From: Planctomycetota bacterium
GTDB lineage: Bacteria; Planctomycetota; UBA1135; UBA2386
NCBI GenBank assembly: GCA_965228735.1
Contig: OZ245838.1
Location: 736,001-800,000, forward strand
DNA length: 64,000 nucleotides
Direction: 5' to 3'
Made by a program: the position numbers and the translations under genes. How positions within the stretch are numbered: position 1 is the stretch's first letter; every line of letters starts with the position of its first letter. The notes beneath the pieces are model-generated. The model was given only the letters and a program-made list of their open reading frames with translations, was not told the origin of the DNA and made no database searches. This document shows positions 34,156-48,871 of the stretch, one piece after another.

Positions 34156-36849
34156 ATGTTCGATCGCTTCATCAGGCTGGCACGGGCTCGCAAGGCCCTG
34201 CAAGAAAAACGCTTCGAGGATGCTCTGCAGCTCGCGGACGATCCGCTGATCGCAGGCACCCGGCGCGCCGAGACGATTCGCGACAAGGCTCGGGCCGCGC
34301 TGCTCACCCGCGCGCGCGAGCGGCTGGCTCAGGGTGAGATTCCGGCGGCGCGGAAGCTCGCCGAACGGCTGCGGCAGGCCGGCGCGGATGCCGGCGTGCA
34401 GACGCTGATCGGCGATCTCGACGCGGCCGAGTCGCGCGACCAGGAGGTCTCGACCGAGGCCCGGAAGGTCGCGGAAGAGGCCCGCAAGCTGCTGCAGCGC
34501 GGCGAGCTCGCGGCGGCGGCGGCGGCCGTGGCGGGGATGCCCGAGGGTGGTCCGGCCGGATTGCAGAGGCAGCTCGAGGCGCAGGTCCAGGAGAGCAAGC
34601 TTCAAGCCAAGGAGCAGCTCGATCACGTCGCGCGCCATCTCGCGCAGACGCGGGTCGACGAGGCGCAGAAGGCGTTCGCCAAGGCGGCGGCGCTCGATCG
34701 CGATGCAGCTGCGAACGCGACCGTGCGCGGCCGGTTGTTCGACGCGCTCGCCGACGGTGCGGGCGGCCGGATCCGCGAGCAGATCGAGCGCGGTGACCTG
34801 CTCGCGGCGTGCGCTGCGGTGCGGGCCGTTCGTGGGCAGGCGGCGACGTTCGAGATCGGGCAGGCGGTGGGCGACGTGCGCGCGCTGAAGAAGCCGCTCA
34901 GCGGTCTCGAGTCCGCGTTGGTCGCCGAGTGGCGGCGCGCGACGGACATCACGGCCGCCGCGGAGCTTGCCGAGGCGGCGCACGAGGCCGGGCTCGAACT
35001 GCCCGCGGCGACGGCGGAGCTGGTGGCCGCGCTGCGCACGGTCCACGCGGCCGGCGCGGGCGATCCGGAACTGCTGCAGAAGCTGCGCGACGTCGCGCGG
35101 ACTGCTGGGTGCAAGTCGCTCGGCAAGGCCGTCGACGGCAAGCTGCTGCGCCTCGACGATCAGGATCAGCGCGTCACGGCAGCCCGTGAGCTCATGGCGC
35201 AGGGCGATCTCGACGCTGCGCGCGAACGGCTGACCGCGGTCCTCGCGGACGACCCGCTGCACGAAGCGGCCCGGCGCGAGCTCGACCTCGTCGAGCAGGG
35301 CATCGGTTCTCTGAGCGAGCAGCTCACGGCGGCCCGCACGGCGGCCCGTGAGGGCCGGCTGCGCGCGGCGTGCAGCCAGGCGCTCGCGCTCGGCACGGCG
35401 GGGCGACTCGGCAACGAGGCGCAGCTGCTGCTGACCGACGTGCGCGCGCGCATGGCGCTGGTCGATCGCGGCCTCGACGAGGTGCGGACGACGCTGCACG
35501 GCAAGGCGGCCGGCAGTCTGCAGGGCGTGCGTCACTGTCTCGCGCGGCTCGAGGAGCTGCGCAAGGTGCAGTGCGATCACGACGAGCTCGATCGCGTCGT
35601 GCTGGCCATCGAGACCGAGATCCAGGGCCTCGAGGCCTGCGATCGCGCGGCCGCCGCGCTGGCCGATGACGATCTCGTGACCGCGGCAGCGAGCCTGTCC
35701 GAGGTGCTCGGTTCGCGCCGCGATCTGCTCGTTCCCGAGCGGCTCGACGCGCGCGTGCTCACGCTCGCCGATCGCTTCCACGCGCACGGCGAACGCGCGC
35801 TCGCGGCCGGCCGCGGCGGCGATCTCGAACGGTGCGCGGCCGTGCTCGACGGCCTCGCCGCCGTGAAGTCCGACTTCGGCGAGACCGCCGCGCACTGGCG
35901 TCGCGACGCCGAACGGCGCAAGCAGGCGGCGGACGACAAGGCCGCGGCGGCGCGCGCCGCGATCGCGGAGCGCGACCTCGCGACGGCCGAGCAGTGCCTC
36001 GAGGAGGCAACTGAACTGTGGGCCGACTGCGCCGCCGTGCGCACGCTGCGGGGCGAGCTCGCGGGGCACCAGCGGCGCCACGACGAGCTCGAACAGGTCG
36101 AGGCGCTGGCCGCCGAGGCGGACTACCAGGGCGCGGCCGAGAAGCTCGCGGCCATGCCGCCGACGCCGGCGCTGCTGCGGACGAGGATCTTCGACATGAA
36201 GCAGCAGCTCGCGCGGGCGCAGGGCCTCGAGGGCGCGTTCCTCATGCGCGTCGACGAAGGCGGTGAACATCTCGTCGTGCGCGGCGAGAGCATCTCGATC
36301 GGCAACGTGCGCCAGAACCGCGCGGACCTGCCCGTGCTCGCGAACGTCGCGGGGCGGCATGCGACGATTCGTCGCAGCATGTCGTTCCACGGCGGCATGG
36401 AGGACACCGTCGTCGCCGAGGATGGCGAGGTGCGCGTGCGCGGCCGCCGCGTGCAAAAGCACAAGCTGCAGGACGGCGACACGATCCAGTTCGGTCCGTC
36501 GCTCGCCGCGAGCTACCGGCAGCCGACCGAGCGGTCGCTGACCGCCGGCCTCGTGCTCCAGGGCGGGTTCCAGATCGCCGGCACCGAGCGCGTGCTGCTG
36601 ATGAAGGACCGCGGCAAGGACGGCCGCATCCTGGTGGGCCCCGGCCGCGACGTGCACGTGCGCGTCACCGGCGCCTCGCACGAGGTCGAGCTGTTCGCCG
36701 CGAGCACGGGCCAGATCCGCGTGCACTGTCCGGCCGGCGGCACGATCGACGGCTCGCCGTTCAAGGGCGAGCACCCGGTCGACGCCGGCCAGGTCGTGAC
36801 CGCGGGTGGCGTAACGTTCGTGCTCCTGCCCTGGCGCCCGTCGCCGTAG
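34156..36849 (+). CDS. Large alpha-helical (TPR-like) protein with C-terminal FHA-like domain(s)
   Basis: About 690 aa of Ala/Leu/Arg/Glu helical repeats, then ISIG...RHATIRR...LQDGDTIQFG and a second beta-rich repeat. Confidence 0.75.
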   Translation: MFDRFIRLARARKALQEKRFEDALQLADDPLIAGTRRAETIRDKARAALLTRARERLAQGEIPAARKLAERLRQAGADAGVQTLIGDLDAAESRDQEVSTEARKVAEEARKLLQRGELAAAAAAVAGMPEGGPAGLQRQLEAQVQESKLQAKEQLDHVARHLAQTRVDEAQKAFAKAAALDRDAAANATVRGRLFDALADGAGGRIREQIERGDLLAACAAVRAVRGQAATFEIGQAVGDVRALKKPLSGLESALVAEWRRATDITAAAELAEAAHEAGLELPAATAELVAALRTVHAAGAGDPELLQKLRDVARTAGCKSLGKAVDGKLLRLDDQDQRVTAARELMAQGDLDAARERLTAVLADDPLHEAARRELDLVEQGIGSLSEQLTAARTAAREGRLRAACSQALALGTAGRLGNEAQLLLTDVRARMALVDRGLDEVRTTLHGKAAGSLQGVRHCLARLEELRKVQCDHDELDRVVLAIETEIQGLEACDRAAAALADDDLVTAAASLSEVLGSRRDLLVPERLDARVLTLADRFHAHGERALAAGRGGDLERCAAVLDGLAAVKSDFGETAAHWRRDAERRKQAADDKAAAARAAIAERDLATAEQCLEEATELWADCAAVRTLRGELAGHQRRHDELEQVEALAAEADYQGAAEKLAAMPPTPALLRTRIFDMKQQLARAQGLEGAFLMRVDEGGEHLVVRGESISIGNVRQNRADLPVLANVAGRHATIRRSMSFHGGMEDTVVAEDGEVRVRGRRVQKHKLQDGDTIQFGPSLAASYRQPTERSLTAGLVLQGGFQIAGTERVLLMKDRGKDGRILVGPGRDVHVRVTGASHEVELFAASTGQIRVHCPAGGTIDGSPFKGEHPVDAGQVVTAGGVTFVLLPWRPSP

Positions 36850-37020
36850 CCGGGCTCTGGCACGCGAACGCGGGATCCACACCCAACCCAGCACCCGGTC
36901 CTGGCGGGCAGATTACGGTATAGCGGAAAATAGAATGCGGGGAGAGGGAACAAGGGTTGGCCCCGACTTTCCTTCGAATAGTCGCCCGTCGAGCCCGTAT
37001 GCGGCGACAGGAGGTCCCCG

Positions 37021-37641
37021 ATGTTCGCAGTCCTCACAGCCGCCACACTCTGCTTCGCCCCGCAAGGCCCCGCCGACGACTTCGGCGCGTCCGATTCCGC
37101 CCGTTCGGAATCCGTTGCGGTCGCCGCCACCGCCGTCGCGGTGCAGGGCGAGACCGAGCTCACGCCGGCCGAGGCCTACGCGTCGGCGTCCCGCGCGGCG
37201 TCCGCGCACGTCCGCGAACGCTGGAACGAGCGGGCCAATCGGGCGGCCGAACTGCGCCGGCCGTTCTGGCTGCCGCAGATCCTGGTCGACGAGCACGTGC
37301 GGCGCTGGCTCGCGGATCTGCCGATCGAGCGCCTCGCGCAGGTCGTCGATCGCGACGACAAGAAGCGCATCCACGAGTTCGGCAACAGCTACCAGACGAC
37401 CTTGTGGGTGGCCGAAGAGCCGCGTCGGGTCGCGCAGGGCGAAGAACGGCTGCAGCGCACGCTGCGCCGGCTCGAGCGGACCACGGCCTACAAGTACGGC
37501 GGCATCGTCGCGGGTTGGGCCCTGCTCGCGTTCGTCGTGAACTGGCTGGATCGGCTCTCGCGCGGCTACATGACCGGGCGGTTGCGGTGCATCGGTCTGC
37601 TCTGTGGCGCCGCGTTCCCGGCCGCGCTGTTTCTCGTGTAA
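37021..37641 (+). CDS. Exported/membrane protein of the kinase-ECF cluster
   Basis: AGGAGG SD; signal peptide; C-terminal TM-LDRLSRGYMTGRLR-TM. Confidence 0.7.
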   Translation: MFAVLTAATLCFAPQGPADDFGASDSARSESVAVAATAVAVQGETELTPAEAYASASRAASAHVRERWNERANRAAELRRPFWLPQILVDEHVRRWLADLPIERLAQVVDRDDKKRIHEFGNSYQTTLWVAEEPRRVAQGEERLQRTLRRLERTTAYKYGGIVAGWALLAFVVNWLDRLSRGYMTGRLRCIGLLCGAAFPAALFLV

Positions 37642-37665
37642 CCTACTGCAACCCCGAAGGACCCC

Positions 37666-39078
37666 ATGGAGGCACCTCGCATCGACTCCGAAGGCCAGGC
37701 CGACGCGCCCGACCGCGTCGACTGGGAAGCCTTCTACCAGAGCTACCGCAAGCCGGGCTACGTGCCCGGCTTCGAGATCATCCACAAGCTGGGTGGCGGG
37801 ATGTTCGGCCTCGTCTTCAAGGCGCGGAAGGAGTCGATCGGCAAGGACTACGCGATCAAGTTCCTGAAGGTCGACGACGAGACCGTGCGCGATGCGGTCG
37901 CGCGCGAGCTCGACACGGTGCGGTTCTTCGCCCAGATCGACCACCCCAACCTCGTGTCGATCGAGGACAAGGGCATCGTCGACGGCATCCCGTTCCTCGT
38001 GATGAGCTACGCCGGGCAGGAGACGCTGCAGAAGCGCCTGCAGGCCGGGGGCCAGCCGGGCGAGCGCCTGCCCCGCGAGGAAGCGCTGCGGATCTTCGCG
38101 CAGGCCGCGCGCGGCGTGCAGGCGCTGCACGAGCATTCGCTCGTCCACTTCGATCTCAAGCCGGCCAACATCTTCCTGAAGGGCGACGTCGCGCGCGTTG
38201 GTGACTACGGGCTCAGCAAGCTCGTCAGCGAGTCGCGCAACTCGCTGAGCTTCAGCCGCGGCACGCCGTACTACATGGCGCCGGAGATGCTGCAGCGGCG
38301 CGGCGACAGCAAGAGCGACATCTATTCGCTCGGCGTCATCCTCTACGAGTGCCTCTACGGCGACGTGCCGTTCCGCGGGGATTCGGAGTGGGAGGTGCTG
38401 CGCAAGCACGAGACGGCGCAGCCCGAGTTCCCGGCCGATGCGATCGCGGGCGACCGCGAGATCGTGCTGCGCTGCATGGCGAAGGACCCGGCCGATCGGT
38501 TCGACTCGGTGGCCGAACTGCTGCGCGCGCTGCAGGCGCCCGTCGCGCTCGGTGAGAGCCTGGTGTTCGATCGTCGTCCGGCGCCGCCAGCTTCCGCCCC
38601 AGCGCCGTCCGCAAACGGGCAGCGCCCGGCGGTCCGGCCGCTCGGTGCGCCGCCGGCGCGCCCGTTCCCGACGCCGCCGCCGTTGCCGCGGCCGGACGCG
38701 ATGCCGGTGCCGCCGCCGCCGCCGCCAGTTGGCGATGCCGAGAACGTGGCTCTTGCCGGGCCGGGTGCCCTGCCCGCCGGCCAACGCGACCCCGCCGACA
38801 GCCCCTACGGCATGCCGTGGCGCGAAGAGCCGCGCAAGAGCGGTGGCCCGGTCGGGCTGCTCGTGCGCGGGATGTTCGGGCTGATCGACCTCGTCATCGC
38901 GCTCGTGATGCTGCCCGTGCGGGTGGTGAGCTGGTTCGCCAGCCGCGGCGTCGGGATGCTCGTTCGCCTGCCGGGCCGCGTGCTCGCGGTCGCGGCCCAG
39001 CTCATCGGGCTGCTCGTGGTCGCGGGGCTCGCGCTGCTCGTCGTGGTCACGGTGCTGCAACTGCTCGGAGCGGTCTGA
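37666..39078 (+). CDS. Hanks-type Ser/Thr protein kinase (non-RD) with Pro-rich linker and C-terminal TMs
   Basis: LGGGMFGLV, AIK, HFDLKPAN, DYG, GTPYYMAPE, DIYSLG. Confidence 0.93.
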   Translation: MEAPRIDSEGQADAPDRVDWEAFYQSYRKPGYVPGFEIIHKLGGGMFGLVFKARKESIGKDYAIKFLKVDDETVRDAVARELDTVRFFAQIDHPNLVSIEDKGIVDGIPFLVMSYAGQETLQKRLQAGGQPGERLPREEALRIFAQAARGVQALHEHSLVHFDLKPANIFLKGDVARVGDYGLSKLVSESRNSLSFSRGTPYYMAPEMLQRRGDSKSDIYSLGVILYECLYGDVPFRGDSEWEVLRKHETAQPEFPADAIAGDREIVLRCMAKDPADRFDSVAELLRALQAPVALGESLVFDRRPAPPASAPAPSANGQRPAVRPLGAPPARPFPTPPPLPRPDAMPVPPPPPPVGDAENVALAGPGALPAGQRDPADSPYGMPWREEPRKSGGPVGLLVRGMFGLIDLVIALVMLPVRVVSWFASRGVGMLVRLPGRVLAVAAQLIGLLVVAGLALLVVVTVLQLLGAV

Positions 39079-39169
39079 CCCGCGCTGCTGGCCCGATCGG
39101 CGGTGCGCAGCCGGCCCCGGATTCGGGCCGCGCGAACTGCCCCGGGCCGCTATCCTGCTACCTCCCGCG

Positions 39170-39838
39170 ATGAGCGATCGATCCTTCGACATGGACCGCC
39201 TGCAGGCGATGGACGAGGCCGCCTGGTCCGAGCTGCAGGGTGAGTACTACCGGCGCATCTACTTCTACGTGAAGCGCTTCGTCACGGACCACCAGACGGC
39301 CGAGGACCTCACGCAGGACGTCTTCCTCGGCGCGGTGCGGGGCATCGGCGGATTCGACCCGAGCTACTCGCTGGACCAGTTCCTGTTCGGCATCGCGAAG
39401 AACCGGGTCATCGATCATTACCGCAAGCACAAGATCGCGCTGATCCCGAGCAAGGCCGATGGTGACGGCAGCGGCGGGGATTCGGACCGCAGCCAGATCT
39501 GGCTCGAGAACATGCCCAACGAGGCCGCGCCGCAGCCGAAGGAGCGCGTCGTCGAATCCGAGGACGGCGGGCGCCAGCGCAAGGTGCTCGCGACGATCCT
39601 GCGGGACATGGTGTCGGACCTCTGGAGCAACGGCGAGTTCCAGAAGCTCATGGTCCTCGAGTTCCTGTTCGTGCTCGGCGGCCGCAACAAGGACGCCGCG
39701 ACGCGCTTCGGCATCGCGGACGAGAAGCACGTCGCGGGGATCAAGTTCCGGGCCGTGGATCGGCTGCGCGGCCTGGCGCGGCAGCACGACCCGAACCATT
39801 CGCTGTTTCGCGGGCTCTGGCAGCCGGGGGCCCGGTAG
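39170..39838 (+). CDS. ECF RNA polymerase sigma factor
   Basis: AEDLTQDVF, FLFGIAKNRVIDHYRK, divergent region 4. Confidence 0.88.
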   Translation: MSDRSFDMDRLQAMDEAAWSELQGEYYRRIYFYVKRFVTDHQTAEDLTQDVFLGAVRGIGGFDPSYSLDQFLFGIAKNRVIDHYRKHKIALIPSKADGDGSGGDSDRSQIWLENMPNEAAPQPKERVVESEDGGRQRKVLATILRDMVSDLWSNGEFQKLMVLEFLFVLGGRNKDAATRFGIADEKHVAGIKFRAVDRLRGLARQHDPNHSLFRGLWQPGAR

Positions 39839-39843
39839 GACCG

Positions 39844-40179
39844 ATGAGCACCGATCCGACGAATCCCGGCAGCGGTGGCGACGGCAGCGAGATCGAGATC
39901 GATCCGCACCTGACGTTCACGGTGGCCTCGGTCTGGCGCGATGAGCGGATCTCGTGCCCGCACCCGCACGTGCTCCAGAGCTACATCCAGGGTGGCCTCG
40001 ACGGGGGTGCGGCCGAGTTCGTGCGCTTCCATCTCGACGAGAGCCAGTGCCCGTACTGCAACGCGATCGTCGAGGACCTGCAGGCCCGGGACAGCGAGGC
40101 CAAGGAGCAGCAGCTCGAGGATCTGAAGGATCGGCTGCTGCGGTCGACGGCCACGGCGCTGCGGAAGGGCCGCGCCTGA
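39844..40179 (+). CDS. Small soluble zinc-binding anti-sigma-like protein
   Basis: CP...L..Y..G.L...FHLDESQCPYC (ZAS-like H-x5-CxxC) directly after the ECF gene. Confidence 0.7.
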   Translation: MSTDPTNPGSGGDGSEIEIDPHLTFTVASVWRDERISCPHPHVLQSYIQGGLDGGAAEFVRFHLDESQCPYCNAIVEDLQARDSEAKEQQLEDLKDRLLRSTATALRKGRA

Positions 40180-40364
40180 CGGCCAGAACAGCCCGTGGCA
40201 TCGGGCGTTCTGCCCGACCTGGCCCGCCCGATTGGGTCGCAATCCGGGCCGCGATCCGGCTGTCGAGCGCAATTCCTGAGCCGGCGCCGAATATCCGGAG
40301 CGGTCGTTCGCAGAGGGGGGGAGTGGCACCGAGAGCGGTGCCCGACAACCACAGCGAGAACGAC

Positions 40365-41207
40365 ATGATCCGCAAGACTTTCAAGGTGGCGCTTCTGACC
40401 GGTGCGGTGCTCGGCGGGGCAGGATTCCTTTTCTTCGGCACCGCCTTCCCCAGCTACGTCAGCTCGATGGCCACGTCCGTGCGTGAGTCGGTCGCTGGCC
40501 AGATCCCGATCGAACTCGAGATCAAGCGGGCCGAGGGCCTCATCAAGCAGATCGATCCGCAGATCGACAACTGCAAGCGTGACCTCGCCCGTTCGGAGGT
40601 CGAGCTCGAGGATCTGCAGGAGTCGATCCAGGAGCTCGAGGAGCGCGTCGCGGTCGAACAGCGCAAGCTGAAGCGCGGCTACAAGCTGTTGCAGGACGGC
40701 GGCGACATCGAGCTCGCGGCCAACTACGGCGCCCGCCGTCGCGTGACGCTCGACCTGCAGCGCACCAAGGACAGCTACGTCAACAACACCGCGATCCTGA
40801 AGGCCAAGCGCATGCTGGTCACCCGCGAGACGCGCAACGTCGAAGCCGCGAAGGAGAAGCTGATCGCGGTCCGCACGCAGCGCGAGTCGCTGATCGACCA
40901 GATCCGTTCGCTCAAGACCCAGCAGCGCGAGATCGAGACCCTGGCCGCGAACAGCGACCGCTTCGACCTCGACAGCTCGGCGCTGAGCCAGGCCAAGGAA
41001 GTGATCGAGACGGTGCGCAAGCGCCTCGACGTCGCCCAGCGCGTGCTCGAGAACGACATGGCGTTCCACGGTGAAGACCCGGACGCCCCGGTCGTCAGCC
41101 AGCGCGACATGATGTCGGAGCTCGAAGAACTCTTCGCCGCGGAAGCTGCGCCGAACAGCGCGAGCGCGGAGGTCATCGAGATCCCCGCCGAGACGCGCGG
41201 CCGCTGA
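40365..41207 (+). CDS. Membrane-anchored coiled-coil protein (PspA/IM30-like architecture)
   Basis: N-terminal signal/TM segment, then long heptads; start at MIRKTFK. Confidence 0.65.
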   Translation: MIRKTFKVALLTGAVLGGAGFLFFGTAFPSYVSSMATSVRESVAGQIPIELEIKRAEGLIKQIDPQIDNCKRDLARSEVELEDLQESIQELEERVAVEQRKLKRGYKLLQDGGDIELAANYGARRRVTLDLQRTKDSYVNNTAILKAKRMLVTRETRNVEAAKEKLIAVRTQRESLIDQIRSLKTQQREIETLAANSDRFDLDSSALSQAKEVIETVRKRLDVAQRVLENDMAFHGEDPDAPVVSQRDMMSELEELFAAEAAPNSASAEVIEIPAETRGR

Positions 41208-41324: not shown

Positions 41325-43766
41325 TCAGCGAGCCCGGATCTTCACCGAACCCCGGATGATCGGGGTGATCATCCGGAGCGCGAGGCGGAACGCCTTCGCG
41401 TTGGACTCGGCCTCGTTGGGCAAGCCCTTCGAACGCCCGTTGCGGCGCCGGCGCCCGTTGCGGCGCTTGCCACCGCGGCGGCTGCTGCCACCGCCGAGGA
41501 GGTTCGACAGCGCGTTCGTCGCCGCGGGCTTCACCACGTCGACGATGTGCGGTGCCATGCTCGCGAGCAGGCCGAACGCCTTCTGGGCCACCTCGTCGTC
41601 GATTTCGTCGCCGTCGCCGTCGCCGAAGTCGGCGTCGCCATCCGGGTCGTAGGCGTCGTCGTCATCGTCGCCGACGCCGGCGATCTGCAGGCTCGACAGC
41701 CAGTCGTCCTGGTCGTCGTCGTCCACGACGTCGAAGTCCTTCTTGCGGCGCCGGCGCTTGCCGGCGTTGCCGAGCGCCGCGGTGGCGCCCTGGATGAGCA
41801 GCGGAGCGAGCGCGGCCAGAACGGGCAGCGCCTTCTCGGTGGTCTCGTCGTCGAGTAGTTCGTTGGTCATGTCAGTCTCCTTCATCAGGTTCTGCAACCG
41901 CGCGAGGAGCCGCGTCCACACGTCTCCTTCGCGTCGATTGGTCTCGTGGTCGCCCGCCGTGGGGCGGGCCGTGACGTCGCGCAGCGCGAGGAACGTGCGC
42001 TCCGCGAGCCGGAACGGGCCCGGCGGCTCGTGGATCGTCGGGGTCTGGCGGAACCCGTGATCCGCGAGGGTCGACCGCACGCTCCCCAGCAGGCGCGACG
42101 CGGTCGCGTCCGGACCGTGCTCGTCGATCGCTTCGAGCAGCGCGTAGGTGAACGCGGACAGTCCGCGGGTGCGGGCCGTCGACGCCGACGCGGTCTCGTT
42201 CTCGGAACAGGCGGCGAGCACGAGGCCCTTGAGCGGGGTGTCGCTGAGCTCGTCGGCGGTCGATTTGCTCGCGCCGAAGCGCCGATAGCCCGTGATCTCG
42301 ATGGGTTCGTTGCCGGCCGATCTCTGGTTCGCGTCCGGGTTCGCTTCCGGGGGCGACGTCGCGTCGATCGCCCAGCGCTTCGGCGCCGCGAAGTCGGCCG
42401 TTCCATCGACGCTCCCGAAGACGATCTTGTCCATGCCGCCCGAGAAGCACGAATCGAGCACGGCCGTGAACACGCCGTCCGGCAGCTGCTGGCTGCGCTC
42501 GGCGAGCACGTCGTCGATGTAGAAGCCGTCGCGCAGCACGAGGACCTCGGTCAGCACGCCGTCGATCGGCAGCTGGTGGCCGTGCCCGGAGTAGTAGAAG
42601 ACGGCGCGGTCGTTCTCGGTGAGGCCGTCGAACAGCCACGCGAGTCCGTCCTCGACCGCCGTGAGCGTCGCGTCCTCGTCGGTGATCACGCGGATGTCGT
42701 CCTGCCGGTAGCCGACGCGTTCGAGGTGGGCCTGGAACGCGCGCGCGTCCGCGACGCAGCTGGGCAGGTTGTTGCGCGGGTTGCCGTAGTCGTTGAGCGC
42801 GACGAGCAGCGCGCGCCGTTGACCCGTCGCGCCGTCGGGCAGCGCCTTGTCGTTGCCGAGCAGCGCGGTCCACGTCTGCGGACCGACGATGCCGTCGGCC
42901 TGCAGCCGTTCGGCGCGCTGGAACGCGATCACGGCGCGCTCGGTCTTGCGGCCGAAGATGCCGTCGACGCTGCCCGGCGGGTGGTCGAGATCGGCGAGCC
43001 GGCGCTGCAGTTCGCGGACCTCGGTGCCCGTCGAACCGACCCGCAGCAACGGCCGGGAGCTCGAGCGTCCGGGTGCCGGCTCGGTGGCGGGCGGCGCCGT
43101 CAACGCGCCGTCGCTGTAGCTGTGCCCGAGGACCGCGCGGTCGACGAGCGTGTAGTAGATCGTGTCGGTCGGATGGTCGTCGGCGAGCTCGAGCAGCTCC
43201 TGCCACGCCGTGCCCGTGCGGCCGCCGTGCACGACCTGGCAGCCCGCGGACCACTTGCCGACGCGGCTGCCCGTGCCGGCATCGTGGATGTTGATGCCGA
43301 AGTAGCCGGTCTCGACCGTCTCGCCCGCGCCCTGCTCGTGGTCGCGGTCACCGTCGCGCCAGATCGTGACGGGCCCGGCCTGCACGAGGCCCGGGCGCCC
43401 CTTGTGGAGGCCGGTCTTGTAGCGGTACTGGCCGTCGACGAGATGGGCGCACCCGGCGCTGCGCATCGGGTTGTCGGTCCAGTACTGGCCCGGGTCGACC
43501 GACGCGAGGAACTCGCGCACCCGCTTCCTGCCCGCGGCGTCGCGCCAGATCACCGCGATCGTGTCGTTGTAGCGGTCGGGTGAGTTGCTCACGGGCCGCC
43601 CGTCGCGATAGCCGCGGATGCCGAGCAGGTTGATCGCGCGTCGGCGCGAGTCGAAGCGGCCGATGCGTTCGATGACCGCCTTGTAGCGGCCGTAGAGAGT
43701 CGCCTCGGAGGCGCCGGATCTGCTGAGCCCGGAGTCGTCCCTGGGCCGTGTCGTCGTCTGGGTCAT
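41325..43766 (-). CDS. Multidomain protein: YkuD-like domain + peptidoglycan-binding domain + metacaspase (C14) + repeated peptide-cassette tail
   Basis: GINIH...SAGCQV; LRVGSTGTEVRELQ...DGIFG...DGIVGPQTW; RALLVALNDY, YYSGHG, LDSCFSG, LAAC, SAFTYAL, QTP. Confidence 0.85.
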   Translation of the reverse strand: MTQTTTRPRDDSGLSRSGASEATLYGRYKAVIERIGRFDSRRRAINLLGIRGYRDGRPVSNSPDRYNDTIAVIWRDAAGRKRVREFLASVDPGQYWTDNPMRSAGCAHLVDGQYRYKTGLHKGRPGLVQAGPVTIWRDGDRDHEQGAGETVETGYFGINIHDAGTGSRVGKWSAGCQVVHGGRTGTAWQELLELADDHPTDTIYYTLVDRAVLGHSYSDGALTAPPATEPAPGRSSSRPLLRVGSTGTEVRELQRRLADLDHPPGSVDGIFGRKTERAVIAFQRAERLQADGIVGPQTWTALLGNDKALPDGATGQRRALLVALNDYGNPRNNLPSCVADARAFQAHLERVGYRQDDIRVITDEDATLTAVEDGLAWLFDGLTENDRAVFYYSGHGHQLPIDGVLTEVLVLRDGFYIDDVLAERSQQLPDGVFTAVLDSCFSGGMDKIVFGSVDGTADFAAPKRWAIDATSPPEANPDANQRSAGNEPIEITGYRRFGASKSTADELSDTPLKGLVLAACSENETASASTARTRGLSAFTYALLEAIDEHGPDATASRLLGSVRSTLADHGFRQTPTIHEPPGPFRLAERTFLALRDVTARPTAGDHETNRREGDVWTRLLARLQNLMKETDMTNELLDDETTEKALPVLAALAPLLIQGATAALGNAGKRRRRKKDFDVVDDDDQDDWLSSLQIAGVGDDDDDAYDPDGDADFGDGDGDEIDDEVAQKAFGLLASMAPHIVDVVKPAATNALSNLLGGGSSRRGGKRRNGRRRRNGRSKGLPNEAESNAKAFRLALRMITPIIRGSVKIRAR

Positions 43767-43793: not shown

Positions 43794-43821
43794 CAACGAC
43801 ACGGCGGCGTCAGGTCCGCCA
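43794..43821 (-). promoter_or_regulatory. Candidate ECF promoter TGGCGGA-N14-GTCGTTG upstream of the metacaspase fusion
   Basis: Identical half-sites and spacing also occur upstream of the ECF gene (47573-47600). Confidence 0.6.
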
Positions 43822-43931
43822 AGGGGCCCGCGAATCTCCGGGGAAGCCCGCAAAACCGCGACCGCGCGCCGGGAGTCGGACTCCGGGCGCGCGGTCGCGG
43901 TCATCGGGCAGCGGGGGTGGCGTGCCGACGC

Positions 43932-44720
43932 TCAGGCCTCGGCGTCGTGCTCCATGTGCCGATCCAGGACGTGCTGCAGCGGCAGGTTCATCACGAAGCG
44001 GAAGTGGATCTGGAACTTGGCCGTCAACTTCCGGTCCGGATCGATCTCGCGCATCACCGCGTCGTCTTCGTCGTTGAACAGCTCGTCGAAGACGTTGAAC
44101 GGGCGCCGCCCCGCCCGCACGACGCGCGGCAGCCGCGTGGCCTTCGCGATCTTCGCGCCCTTGCGGGGCGCGAACCGTGGCACGCGGGCTATCCGTGTGC
44201 GGCCGCCATCATCGTCGTCCGCGGGTTCGACCTCGTAGTTGTATTGCACGATCGCGCGACCGCGTTCGTCGTAGGTCACGGTGACGCACGTGTGGTTGCT
44301 GTCGCCGTCGTCGCCGCTCCGGCTCCGACTGCTCTTCTTCGCGGTGCTCGTCTTGCCCTTCTTCGCCGCCTTGCGGGGGCGGACGGCCGGCAGTGCGCCG
44401 AGGTTGTAGATGCCGATGTCGGTATCGAACCGCAGGCCGAAGTTGCCCGTGTTGTACTTCTTCAGCGCCTCCCCGACCGCGTCGTGCACCTTGTCGTTGA
44501 GCGGGTGGAAGCTGGTCGGGTCGATGCGCACACGCGGGTTCCACCACACGGATCCCATGAGGTTGCGAAACGCCGTGGTCTTGCCGCCGCGCAAGCGGCG
44601 GCCTGCGAGCTCGATCACGCGGCAGCGATCGAGGTTGCTCAGCGCGTTGAAGTACGGCATGCACGTGCGTTCGTAGTCGAGCACGAAGCGCAGCTGACAG
44701 TTCTGGAACGACTGGTTCAT
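43932..44720 (-). CDS. Hypothetical protein, 262 aa, with basic and acidic low-complexity patches
   Basis: AGGAGA SD; ATGA overlap with the kinase stop; no family recognised. Confidence 0.7.
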   Translation of the reverse strand: MNQSFQNCQLRFVLDYERTCMPYFNALSNLDRCRVIELAGRRLRGGKTTAFRNLMGSVWWNPRVRIDPTSFHPLNDKVHDAVGEALKKYNTGNFGLRFDTDIGIYNLGALPAVRPRKAAKKGKTSTAKKSSRSRSGDDGDSNHTCVTVTYDERGRAIVQYNYEVEPADDDDGGRTRIARVPRFAPRKGAKIAKATRLPRVVRAGRRPFNVFDELFNDEDDAVMREIDPDRKLTAKFQIHFRFVMNLPLQHVLDRHMEHDAEA

Positions 44721-46909
44721 CGGTTCTCCTTCTGGGTGGACGAGGGGTCGGTGGAGCCGGGCTTCGCCGCGGTGGCGGTGCGCGGTGGCGCCGGCGTGAG
44801 GCTCTTGGCGCAGCGCAACCCGAGATCGCCGGTGGCGTCGAAGGTCGGGCTGCTCCGGGGGAACCCGAACATGAAGAGCTTCTCGGCGGAGACGGCCCAG
44901 GAACCACCGGTCGCGAGCCTCCCCGTCCGCGAAGCGACTTTGAACTCCGACGGATCGGCGAGCCACTCCCGCACGTTGCCGAACGGCTGCAGGATGCCGC
45001 GCTCCGCGTAGGTGCCCGCGCGATCCGCGGGCACGGCGTGCCGCACGAAGTGGCTCACCTCCTGATCGCTGCCGCGCCCCAGCACGAACGGTGTCGTCGC
45101 ACCGTCGGTGAGATGGTCCTCGAGCCAGGTCTCGGCGCGTCCCATGGCCAGGTCCCATTCGACCGCCGTGGGCAGTCGCTTGCCGACCCACTCGGCGTAC
45201 TCGCGGGCCTCGCGCCATTCGACGAACACCATCGGGAGTTCGTCCCAGTCGGCGCGCGGCGGCTCGTCCCAGATCTTCTGCAGCCCAGAGATGGTCCAAC
45301 TGCTCGGCCGTTCCCGGCCGACGGCCTGCAGGAACGTCCGGTATTGCCCGATCGTGACCGGCGCCCGGTCGATGAGGAACGGTCGGCAGTCCTGCATTGC
45401 CGAACTCAGCTGGGTGCCGGACGGCGTTCCGACGAGGTTCCACATCTCGAGGGCGCCGCCGTCGACGCGCACCATCTCCGACTCGACTTCGGCAACCGTC
45501 GCGAAGCGCACGTGAGCGAGATCGATCGCCGACTCGTCCGCCCGTCGCCGGAGCTCCGCGAACGCCCCGCGCTCGTCGACGAGCACGATGCGGGCCTCGC
45601 CGGACCGCATGTCGAAGGTCCGCTCGTTGCGCTCGACGGTCGCGCGTTCCGGTGGCGCCCAACCCGCCGCGGCGCCGAGCCACGGACTCACCGTCACAGC
45701 GAGCGACTGGGTGCCGGACACGGTGACGGCGCGATCGGCGTCCTCGGCCGCCGCGGTTTCGCCGCCGGCGAACGCCGCGAACCCGGCCAGGGCGAGCAGT
45801 GCTCCGGCGAGCGCCGCGAGCGTCACCGCGCGGCGGCCGGCGAAGCGCTGCAGCCGATACCAGAGGCTCGGCGGGCGGGCCGCGACCGTCGCGCCGGCGA
45901 GGTACCGCTCGAGGTCACGCTGCAGTTCGGCGGCGCTGGCGTAGCGGTCGTCGCGATCGCGACGCAGCGCCTTCAGGGTGACGAGCTCGAGGTCGCGCGG
46001 CACGTTGTCGCGCAGTCGCCGCAGCGGTCGCGCATCCTCGTGCGTGATGCGATGCAGGATCTCCTCGACGCTCGCGCCGGGGAACGGCGGCTCACCCGTG
46101 AGCAGCTCGTGCAGCACGGCGCCCGCGGAATACACGTCGGTGCGCGCGTCGACCGGTTCACGTTCGGCGCGCACCTGCTCGGGGGACATGTAGAGCGGCG
46201 TGCCCGCGCTGTGCCCGGACCGACTGATCGCGTCGAGGTGCAGGACCTTGGCGAGCCCGAAGTCGATCACGTGCGGCCGATGGTCGCGATCGACGAGGAT
46301 GTTCTGCGGCTTGATGTCGCGATGCAGCACACCGCGTTCGTGGCTGTAGGCGAGTGCCTCGGCGACGTCGCGCATCAGCCGCGCACAGACCACCGGGTCG
46401 CCGAAGTCCGGTCCACCGGCGACGGCACCGTCCATGAGCTGGCGCAGATTCCAGCCCGCGACGAGCTGCATCGCGTAGTAGAAGAGGCCGTTGGCCTGCC
46501 CGAACGCGAGCACGGGCACGATGCGCGGATGCACCAGTCGCGACGCCGCGAGCGCCTCGCGCTTGAAGCGCTCGGTCGCGAGCGGATCGCTGGGCACGCG
46601 CGGGTCGAAGACCTTGACCGCGACCGGCCGGTCGAGCTCGAGCTGCGTCGCGCGATACACGACGCCCATGCCGCCGCGGCCGATGAGCTCGTGCAGCTCG
46701 AAGTCGCCGAGGCGGGTGCCGGCGAGCGACGGCGGCGGGGCGTCGAGGTCGGTGAGGAAACCGGCGGTCTGGGCGGCGCACAACCGCGCGACCTCGGCGG
46801 CGAGTTCGCGATCGGGCTCGCCTGCCAGAAGGGCATCGCGTTCAGACCCGGGCAGGTCCGCGACGCGGTCGAACAAGGCCTCGACCTTAGCCCAGCGTTC
46901 GGCGTTCAA
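44717..46909 (-). CDS. Ser/Thr kinase with TM helix and C-terminal FGE-sulfatase-like domain
   Basis: MNAERWAKVEALF N-terminus typical of ECF43-linked kinases; GRGGMG, HRDIKPQN, DFG, GTPLYMSPEQ; VTIGQY, KRLPT, GNVREW, GGSW, GLRC. Confidence 0.92.
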   Translation of the reverse strand: MNAERWAKVEALFDRVADLPGSERDALLAGEPDRELAAEVARLCAAQTAGFLTDLDAPPPSLAGTRLGDFELHELIGRGGMGVVYRATQLELDRPVAVKVFDPRVPSDPLATERFKREALAASRLVHPRIVPVLAFGQANGLFYYAMQLVAGWNLRQLMDGAVAGGPDFGDPVVCARLMRDVAEALAYSHERGVLHRDIKPQNILVDRDHRPHVIDFGLAKVLHLDAISRSGHSAGTPLYMSPEQVRAEREPVDARTDVYSAGAVLHELLTGEPPFPGASVEEILHRITHEDARPLRRLRDNVPRDLELVTLKALRRDRDDRYASAAELQRDLERYLAGATVAARPPSLWYRLQRFAGRRAVTLAALAGALLALAGFAAFAGGETAAAEDADRAVTVSGTQSLAVTVSPWLGAAAGWAPPERATVERNERTFDMRSGEARIVLVDERGAFAELRRRADESAIDLAHVRFATVAEVESEMVRVDGGALEMWNLVGTPSGTQLSSAMQDCRPFLIDRAPVTIGQYRTFLQAVGRERPSSWTISGLQKIWDEPPRADWDELPMVFVEWREAREYAEWVGKRLPTAVEWDLAMGRAETWLEDHLTDGATTPFVLGRGSDQEVSHFVRHAVPADRAGTYAERGILQPFGNVREWLADPSEFKVASRTGRLATGGSWAVSAEKLFMFGFPRSSPTFDATGDLGLRCAKSLTPAPPRTATAAKPGSTDPSSTQKENR

Positions 46910-46913
46910 CGGT

Positions 46914-47522
46914 TCACTCCTGGTCCTCCCCGAGCTCGGCGGCGAGCCAGGCGCGCGCCGCCGTCCACTTCCGTTCGAAGGTCCGCTTGCTCAGCCCCAG
47001 GGCATCGGCGGCTTCCGCCACGCTCGCGCCGCCGAAGAACCGCAGCTCGACCGCGCGTGACATCTCGGCGTTGAACGTCTGCAGCCGTTCGAGCGCGTCG
47101 TCGAGCGCGACGAGGTCGCCGCTGCGCAGCTCGGCGGCAGCCGCGATACCGTCGAGCGCGACCCGCTTCGCGCCGCCGCCGCGCTTGTCCCGGAGCTTGC
47201 CGCGCGCGTGATCGACGAGCACCTGCCGCATCGCGTGAGCCGCGACATTGAGGAAGTGGGCGCGGTCCGCGAAGCGCGAGTCGTCGGTGGCCGCGACCTT
47301 GAGCCACACCTCGTTGAGCAGGGCGGTCGCCTGCAGCGTGTGCCCCTCCGGCTGGGCGGCCATGTTCCGCCGCGCGAGCGCGTGCAGTTCGCGATGCAGC
47401 CAGATGGCCAGGCGCTCGCGCGCTTCGGCATCGCCGTGCTGCGATCGCCGGATCCAGTGCGTGATCGTTCCGTCGCCGGGCTCCGGCGTCGTTCCCGCGG
47501 ATGACTCTGAGGGCATTGGCAT
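46914..47522 (-). CDS. ECF sigma factor, TIGR02999/ECF43 type
   Basis: HTLQATALLNEVWLK, DRAHF...AMRQVLVDHAR, KRGGG, VELRFFGG, W..ARAWL. Confidence 0.92.
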   Translation of the reverse strand: MPMPSESSAGTTPEPGDGTITHWIRRSQHGDAEARERLAIWLHRELHALARRNMAAQPEGHTLQATALLNEVWLKVAATDDSRFADRAHFLNVAAHAMRQVLVDHARGKLRDKRGGGAKRVALDGIAAAAELRSGDLVALDDALERLQTFNAEMSRAVELRFFGGASVAEAADALGLSKRTFERKWTAARAWLAAELGEDQE

Positions 47523-47572
47523 GGTCCTGGTGGTGGCGGCGCCACCGCTCCGGGCCCGCGCGTCGACCTCTC

Positions 47573-47600
47573 CAACGACGAATCGCCGCGCGTTCCGCCA
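47573..47600 (-). promoter_or_regulatory. Candidate autoregulatory ECF promoter TGGCGGA-N14-GTCGTTG
   Basis: 50 nt upstream of the ECF start; matches the motif at 43794-43821. Confidence 0.6.
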
Positions 47601-47710
47601 TGATACGCGACAACCGGCTCCGGCGGCGCCGGGGGGGTGTGGAATCACGAAATCACGCCGCCGAGGAGGTTGGATTCGGCTCCCCGCGGTCGCTAGCCTC
47701 CTTCGCCCGA

Positions 47711-48871
47711 ATGAACATCCACGAGTATCAGGCCAAGCAGGTCTTGGCGGAGTTCGGCGTGCCGGTCTCGCGGGGGATCCCGTGCCAGACCCCCGACGAG
47801 GTCGCCAAGGCGTTCACGGAGCTCGACGAGCCCCTCGCGGTCGTCAAGGCCCAGATCCACGCTGGCGGTCGCGGCAAGGCCGGCGGCGTCAAGCTGGTGA
47901 AGAGCGCCGACGAGGCGAAGTCGGTGGCCGAGGGGCTGTTCGGCAAGGCGCTCGTCACGCACCAGACCGGCCCCGAGGGCCGCGTCGTGCACACGATCTA
48001 CGTCGAGTCCGGCAGCGACATCGATCGCGAGATGTATCTCGCGGTGCTCATGGACCGCGCCGCCGAAGCGCCCGTCGTGATCGCGGCGGCCGAGGGTGGC
48101 GTCGACATCGAAGAGCTCGCGGAGACCAACCCCGAGGCGATCGCGCGTCACCGCGTGCACCCGGTCAAGGGACTCATGCCGTTCCAGGCGCGGGCGATCT
48201 GCAAGCACCTCGGACTGTCGGGTGATCAGGCCAAGCAGGGCGGCAAGCTCATCACGGCGCTCGTCAAGGCCTTCATGGCGAAGGACTGCTCGCTCGCCGA
48301 GATCAACCCGTTGATCACGACCAAGCAGGGCGAGGTCAAGGCGCTCGATGCCAAGATGGGCTTCGACGACAACGCGCTGTTCCGGCACCAGGACATCGTC
48401 GAGCTGCGCGATCTCAACGAGGAGGATCCGAAGGAGGTCGAGGCCAAGAAGTTCGACCTCAGCTACATCGCGCTGACGGGCAACATCGGCTGCCTCGTCA
48501 ACGGCGCGGGCCTCGCGATGGCGACCATGGACGTCGTGCAGCAGAAGGGCGGCATGCCGGCCAACTTCCTCGACGTCGGCGGCGGCGCCAGCGCGGAGCA
48601 GGTGACCAACGCGTTCAAGATCCTGCTCAGCGACGAGAACGTGAAGGGCATCCTCGTCAACATCTTCGGCGGGATCATGAAGTGTGACACGATCGCCGAG
48701 GGCGTGATCACCGCGGCCAAGGAGGTCAACCTCTCGGTGCCGCTCGTCGTGCGCCTCGAGGGCACCAACGTCGAGCTCGGCCGCAAGCTGCTCGACGAGT
48801 CCGGGATCGATCTCAAGACCGCGTCGTCACTCGACGAGGCGGCCGAGGCGATCGTCGCGGCCATCCAGTAA
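47711..48871 (+). CDS. sucC: Succinyl-CoA synthetase beta subunit
   Basis: [48 protein letters not shown]. Confidence 0.97.

Follow-up and report, generated by a model that had tools for sequence, protein, structure and literature searches.

A conserved promoter-like element before a kinase-linked ECF sigma operon and a metacaspase fusion gene in a planctomycete genome

The locus and its two motif copies

In the window analysed here, a 64,000-nucleotide (nt) stretch of a Planctomycetota bacterium (contig OZ245838.1, positions 736,001 to 800,000), the bipartite motif TGGCGGA-N14-GTCGTTG is found twice on the minus strand, once ahead of a gene for a sigma factor of the extracytoplasmic function (ECF) type and once ahead of a gene for a fusion protein of 813 amino acids (aa) that includes a metacaspase domain. 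The order on this strand is copy 1 of the motif, the sigma gene, a kinase gene, a gene for a 262-aa protein, a hairpin, copy 2, a ribosome-binding site and the fusion gene (Table 1). The sequence comparisons presented below suggest that this element most likely serves the adjacent sigma factor, which is predicted to be activated by the kinase, as its cognate promoter, and we estimate the probability of this at roughly 0.8.

The sigma factor scores 190 bits against TIGR02999 (cut-off 126) and 157 bits against PF07638; its residues 64-67 read QATA, with Thr66 as the predicted phosphosite, and its sigma4 helix has the sequence SKRTFERKW. The TIGR02999/PF07638 match, the kinase at +1 and the QATA motif are features of the ECF43 group, and we refer to the protein as ECF43-like, a label that carries no ECF group-model assignment. 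The kinase (domain at residues 70-324, with the motifs GxGGMG, VAVK, HRDIKPQN and SPE) has a single hydrophobic segment (362-380) and an FGE/sulfatase-modifying-like domain (477-702), which is predicted to lie outside the membrane and likely plays a sensor role. No TPR family was matched in the kinase by a Pfam-type domain search.

The original prediction had placed the two copies at 47600-47573 and 43821-43794, and these coordinates were verified in the sequence: copy 1 lies 50 nt 5' of the sigma ATG at 47522 (56 nt from a second ATG at 47516), and copy 2 lies 27 nt 5' of the fusion ATG at 43766, with GAGGGA as a ribosome-binding site in between. Its statement that the half-sites and the spacing are identical holds as well, all 14 half-site bases being the same while the spacer sequences are unlike. 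Contigs from two public DNA runs, possibly the source of the assembly, cover nearly the whole stretch without any differences.

The two matches in the window compare with 0.01 expected from shuffles. In the whole genome (7.19 Mb, 69% GC) the N14 motif is present at copies 1 and 2 only, against 0.22 expected per spacing, and the other spacings within 5-30 gave three further matches in total. Since the motif had been defined from the two sites themselves, a post hoc null was run on pairs of upstream regions not more than 6 kb apart, taken from a gene calling made for this analysis, in which two regions were counted as matching if they had the same 7+7 word exactly, with gaps of equal length (12-18) and unlike spacers. 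Such a word is shared by 13 of the 6462 pairs, that of copies 1 and 2 included (about 0.2% per pair). Because nearby upstream regions match equally well at this rate, the motif pair in the window, taken alone, is modest and suggestive evidence rather than decisive.

Table 1. Features of the locus (positions in the window); transcription starts are predicted by setting the C of CGTT at -13
Feature	Position	Strand	Remarks
Promoter copy 1 (predicted)	47573..47600	-	predicted -35 TGGCGG 47600-47595, -10 CGTT 47577-47574, start ~47564
Promoter copy 2 (predicted)	43794..43821	-	predicted -35 43821-43816, -10 CGTT 43798-43795, start ~43785
ECF43-like sigma factor, 202 aa	46914..47522	-	TIGR02999, PF07638
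Hanks-type Ser/Thr kinase, 730 aa	44717..46909	-	begins 5 nt past sigma stop
262-aa protein	43932..44720	-	no family match; overlaps kinase stop codon
Terminator-like hairpin, then UUUU	43852..43902	-	30 nt 5' of copy 2
YkuD/L,D-peptidase-fold + PG_binding_1 + metacaspase fusion, 813 aa	41325..43766	-	domain search, structure model
TATCAT (minus)/CATGAT (plus), housekeeping-type -10-like	47599..47605	both	sequence; overlaps first bases of copy 1
sucC, divergent neighbour	47711..48871	+	Pfam; not a conserved part of the cassette

Conservation of the element and the residues that may read it

Among 60 relatives searched for orthologues of the fusion, close ones were found in two, designated G019 and G029. 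In G019, which belongs to another genus, the order of sigma, kinase, small gene and fusion is kept, the two sigma factors being 53% identical, and so are both motif copies, which again have different spacers: TGGCGGA-N14-ATCGTTT lies 16 nt 5' of the sigma ATG and TGGCGGG-N14-CTCGTTT 36 nt 5' of the fusion ATG.

The sigma family was represented by 136 members, from an order-level search and a broad scan, and by the 16 paralogues of this genome; a class-level search added nothing. In a quick tree our sigma factor groups with those of G019 and G030 (SH-aLRT 96) inside a clade of 28 rows. When the upstream regions of the 26 foreign clade members were subjected to Gibbs sampling, so that this genome had no part in it, TGGCGGA-N13/14-GTCGTT was recovered in 17 of them, and a matrix was built from 16 of these foreign sites, the L173 site being dropped as it sits at a coding start. 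Leave-one-out scores of at least 12 were reached by 15 of the 26 clade members, by none of the 109 family members outside the clade and by 9 of 1040 shuffles; the relatives are not independent, and these counts are thus not probabilities. The search alignment A1 had ten foreign sequences, of which five were chosen once the motif had been seen near them; of the 16 clade rows outside A1, 8 reached the score. Of the 21 rows in which a co-oriented kinase is present, 15 have the motif, as against none of the five in which it is absent. The conserved core is TGGCGG-N16/17-CGTT, with the geometry of ECF -35 and -10 elements, the predicted -10 element being CGTT and not the full GTCGTTG. In the other family clades C, D, Acido1, Acido2 and Acido4, motif discovery produced no result that stood out clearly from shuffles. 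In the Acido3 group of close acidobacterial ECF43-like proteins (L079, L089, L109, L082, L070) an upstream motif ending AAGCGAC is above shuffles.

The residues of the sigma factor that may contact this core were compared with a published specificity code. According to the preferences measured in Dataset S3 of PMC7776599, Asp at the position of RpoE N84 goes with CG at -13/-12 (0.62) and an Arg at that of R171 with C at -31 (0.88); Glu171 has no clear preference and Arg172 none. Aligned through the 40 canonical ECF sigma factors of the genome, our sigma factor has Asp (the D of LVDHAR) at N84 with a profile probability of 99.3, a register that is likely but not certain. Setting the C of CGTT at -13 places the TGGCGG element so that its first T is at -35/-36. 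The residue at R171 is Glu in 24, Thr in two and Gln in one of the 27 sequences made up of this sigma factor and its 26 foreign clade rows, and G stands at -31 in the 18 best clade sites. The sole clade member with Arg at R171 is the paralogue C1:2288807-2289409, for which the code predicts C at -31; TGGCCG-N17-CGTT, which has this base, occurs there twice locally, before the paralogue's own gene and 34 nt before a gene at the cluster's far end. In a separate ECF43-like clade, 7 of 10 rows (L025, L027, L029, L031, L032, L039, L040) have TGACCG..CGCA, which is of the same geometry and directed toward the gene on the divergent side; five of these rows have Arg at R171. The promoter base thus appears to change with the sigma factor's own residue, as seen in one paralogue and one clade, which would not easily be explained by a sigma factor acting in trans.

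Two observations may be added on these loci. The paralogue belongs to a cassette at G000:C1:2283601-2289518 (G000 being this genome) with a sigma factor and an FGE-domain kinase, in which the second TGGCCG copy precedes a convergent gene pair. Several of the divergent genes behind the TGACCG..CGCA sites begin like secreted proteins; TGACCG-type sites are not enriched genome-wide in G000.

The set of targets seems to be small. Among the intergenic upstream sites of this genome, copy 2 (19.0) and copy 1 (17.4) are the first and the second by matrix score, six matches in IS3 coding sequence being excluded. Exact and degenerate scans of the genome revealed no enrichment 5' of genes at the true spacing, TGGCGG-N17-CGTT having three intergenic upstream matches against 0-5 at other spacings, and because of this the regulon looks local, comprising perhaps four genes, namely the sigma-kinase operon and the fusion. 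An apparent excess of nine upstream matches was due to six copies inside the IS3 orfB coding sequence with a mis-called start and was discarded. In the clade, additional local copies of the motif occupy six sites, spread over 5 of 26 loci with 29.7 kb of intergenic DNA; the corresponding number is four for the 292 kb of the 108 non-clade loci and 0-1 when wrong spacings are used. Three motif copies are present in L098. Unrelated genes stand behind the extra copies, such as a gene for a LodA-like oxidase in L056 and, in L098, two small genes followed by a subtilase gene. Three of the six copies are directed at a divergent neighbour, with the sigma gene lying behind them.

The IS3-family copies in question (G000:C1 341075, 559300, 3778631, 4808956, 6553227 and 7180441) match the motif strongly within orfB, at a point 29 nt 5' of an in-frame ATG, and we treat this as a coincidence of the coding sequence. 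In the region G000:C1:340545-344371, an IS3 copy and an IS256-like transposase are nested with pieces that resemble a group II intron reverse transcriptase.

The fusion target, the proposed mechanism and its rivals

The second presumed target of the sigma factor, the fusion protein, has a YkuD/L,D-peptidase-fold domain at about residues 21-219, PG_binding_1 at 246-302 and a C14 metacaspase domain at 317-579 with the His/Cys pair His395 and Cys440. In the N-terminal domain His161 and Cys176 are invariant in 72 sequences. Its structure was modelled with an alignment-based pLDDT of 93.5 (30 from the single sequence), distant homologues with 31-46% identity from a metagenome scan being used for folding only. 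A wide structure search with this model gave Pgp2 at Z 9.7 (root-mean-square deviation 3.7 A, 125 aligned residues); the top 20 rows were all of L,D-peptidase type and the next row was unrelated (Z 3.2), while Foldseek gave no match at E<=0.001. The model thus points to a fold in common with the YkuD L,D-carboxy/transpeptidases Pgp2, Csd6 and Bd1075 and with the phage families phrog_3000 and phrog_33083. In contrast to Pgp2, Csd6 and Bd1075, the YkuD domain is here joined to a peptidoglycan-binding domain, a metacaspase and a repeat tail, and its activity is a prediction. The orthologue is full-length in G019; in G029 two contigs have one matching half each.

The tail of the fusion (41325-41870, minus strand) consists of three amphipathic segments, each placed after a Lys (KAL, KAF, KAF), with acidic/basic spacers between them, and this pattern and the single reading frame are kept in G019 and G029. 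Metacaspases cut after Lys or Arg. The tail may possibly be a precursor that processes itself into peptides, or it may be translated as a product on its own; self-processing of the fusion into membrane-active peptides is conceivable but speculative. An internal AAGGAG stands before an ATG at the start of the tail.

The following mechanism may be proposed. A signal sensed by the FGE-like domain would lead the membrane kinase to phosphorylate the sigma factor at Thr66, its predicted site, rendering it active. The active factor would then read TGGCGG as the -35 element by its sigma4 and CGTT as the -10 element by its sigma2, with Asp84 probably reading CG. Basal expression of the sigma factor and the kinase could be provided by the housekeeping-type -10 TATCAT that overlaps copy 1, and copy 1 would create a positive feedback on the sigma-kinase operon. 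The hairpin at 43902-43852 would end the operon transcript, and copy 2 would induce the fusion independently. As to the role of the system, an inducible envelope-stress or antagonism response seems the likeliest because of the fusion payload, this being the weakest step of our interpretation.

The cognate-promoter reading, which was also that of the original prediction, is supported by the retention of both copies in the syntenic G019 locus, the de novo recovery of the motif, its clade specificity and, in part, the residue code. The two-block architecture of the -35/-10 type stands, with the conserved -10 element narrowed to CGTT. The motif did not bring out a wider regulon; in the genome the exact N14 form is as rare as described above, and the degenerate motif is common, with 542 sites of at least 13. 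Several observations speak against the cognate-promoter reading. Most of these 542 sites lie in coding DNA and five of them outscore copy 2, and 11 of the 26 clade rows score under 12. In G029 the site before the fusion is weak (TGGCAAA-N14-GACGTTT, score 8.0, 31 nt upstream), the sigma gene not being on that contig. The 28-row clade itself has weak support in the quick tree (SH-aLRT 81), and its members are kin that are not independent. Direct pairwise alignments to RpoE are shifted by one helical turn and put Gln at N84; for Glu171 and Arg172 the code makes no positive prediction of the G at -31 and the G at -34; two of the seven TGACCG rows have Gln and not Arg at R171. The promoter also differs from the GTC (-35) and CAG (-10) elements predicted for the proteobacterial ECF43 set in the available text of PMC7826278.

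If the motif is a real promoter, it might be read by another ECF sigma factor acting in trans, in a cascade onto the kinase-sigma operon and the fusion. There are many canonical ECF sigma factors in the genome, 18 of 40 with Asp at N84, and a CGT-type -10 element is known from other groups (CGTC in ECF41 and ECF42). Such a factor, however, would hardly produce a motif that follows one ECF43 clade (15 of 26 rows against 0 of 109) and whose -31 base changes with the residue of the adjacent sigma factor, and the genome-wide regulon that a trans-acting stress sigma might show was not seen; we regard this explanation as unlikely. Somewhat less probable still is that the motif is the site of a non-sigma transcription factor and that transcription starts from housekeeping promoters such as TATCAT. 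This hexamer, with CATGAT on the other strand, does overlap copy 1, and a TAnnnT sequence, noted by eye and uncounted, stands shortly before the start of several among the 16 other TIGR02999-type paralogues. On the other hand, the motif is asymmetric and directional and has ECF spacing, no conserved DNA-binding protein besides the sigma factor is present among the matches listed for the inspected cassettes, TATCAT is not kept at the other clade sites and copy 2 has no such hexamer.

The least probable explanation, to which we would give very little weight, is that the pair arose by chance in DNA of 69% GC or is a relic of local duplication. The post hoc null would produce some pair per 64-kb window about one time in ten, and this speaks for chance. 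Against it, both copies are kept in G019 with different spacers, the motif was recovered de novo without this genome, and a second self-consistent pair exists at the paralogous locus; the conservation in G019, the Gibbs recovery and the clade-specific scores largely refute both chance and duplication. A bolder proposal may be formulated, in which such loci are modular, mutually insulated kinase-sigma-payload cassettes, with an FGE-like sensor kinase that activates its own sigma factor, a private promoter one base (-31) away from that of the paralogue, and an antagonism or suicide payload, here an L,D-peptidase-metacaspase that would cut its own tail after lysines and release amphipathic membrane-active peptides. 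We consider this proposal improbable as a whole.

According to the available text of PMC13147305 and PMC8999054, ECF43 sigma factors do not have the acidic motif for core polymerase binding and become active once the adjacent kinase phosphorylates the Thr of a QTTA-like motif. The systems EcfP/PknT of Vibrio parahaemolyticus and EcfK/PknS of Xanthomonas citri, as far as they are described there, have in common with our locus a PF07638/TIGR02999 sigma factor with a Hanks kinase at +1, a single-pass kinase, the lack of an anti-sigma gene in the operon and the replacement of DAED by Q-x-T-A (QATA here, QATE in EcfK, STTA in EcfP). Our locus is set apart by its planctomycete host with 17 paralogues. 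The two systems also differ from it in their targets, a type VI secretion system or a polymyxin-resistance regulon as opposed to the apparently local genes here, and in the sensor, which is FGE-like here and TPR in the EcfP/EcfK-type kinases; an extracytoplasmic TPR kinase, typical of the proteobacterial set and not part of the mechanism, is absent from our locus, as is the GTC/CAG promoter. The ECF41 and ECF42 promoters (TGTCACA or TGTCGAT ... CGTC) are likewise bipartite, with a -35 element starting with TG, a CGT-type -10 element and a small local regulon; they have other bases, and their sigma factors are controlled by C-terminal extensions that the 202-aa sigma factor does not have. The element described here is of the autoregulatory ECF type in being two-block, of fixed ECF spacing and over-represented 5' of one sigma clade.

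Autoregulation is an established regulatory logic of ECF sigma factors, and for this reason the surprise in our result is limited. The phosphorylation-activated sigma-kinase system is already known in kind, and it is the promoter that was not found in the literature searched: no paper describing a TGGCGG/CGTT motif was noticed among those listed for ECF43, EcfK, EcfP, TIGR02999, planctomycete ECF sigma factors or metacaspase-peptidoglycan-binding proteins, Datasets S1/S2 of PMC7776599 being a place that could contain it, and the available part of the supplement of PMC7826278 has no TGGCGG, GGCGG or TGACCG. Kinase-activated ECF sigma factors are numerous in genomes like this one, which has 17 ECF43-like paralogues, while targets have been described, in the sources available to us, for the proteobacterial models only. 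A defined motif, a one-base variant tied to one residue and a local target may create an opportunity to design a reporter assay for phosphorylation-controlled transcription, and the variant may provide a way to study how paralogues avoid cross-talk. The motif also points to cassette targets in other genomes, such as the subtilase-containing cluster of L098 and the LodA-like oxidase of L056.

Neighbouring features

The gene for the 262-aa protein was found in G000 only, of 61 genomes. The gene at this position varies between related loci, G019 having an unrelated small gene there, and the 262-aa protein was thus rejected as a conserved regulator. In two clade loci the gene next after the kinase is a similar 91-aa Thr/Ser-rich one (L175:5326-5601 and L181:4031-4306, oriented coordinates), and in the others this gene varies and mostly has no family. 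The hairpin has a fold z-score of -4.67, reached by 0 of 200 shuffles. It was not reported by a simple terminator scan, and its being a dispersed repeat was rejected, as it is not repeated in the genome. The TATCAT/CATGAT sequence lies in the divergent gap between the sigma gene and sucC, and TATCAT is absent before the other 17 clade sites listed; the two hexamers, which overlap on opposite strands, could serve housekeeping transcription in both directions from a promoter that overlaps the ECF site. No sucC adjoins the G019 locus.

A second ECF gene (39170-39838), convergent with the fusion, was rejected as the source of the cognate sigma factor since the fusion does not have it as a neighbour in G019. 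It belongs to a second kinase/ECF cluster that converges on the fusion at 34156-41207 on the plus strand of the window and comprises an FHA-tailed helical protein, a Ser/Thr kinase, an ECF matched in region 2 only, a small CxxC protein and a coiled-coil protein.

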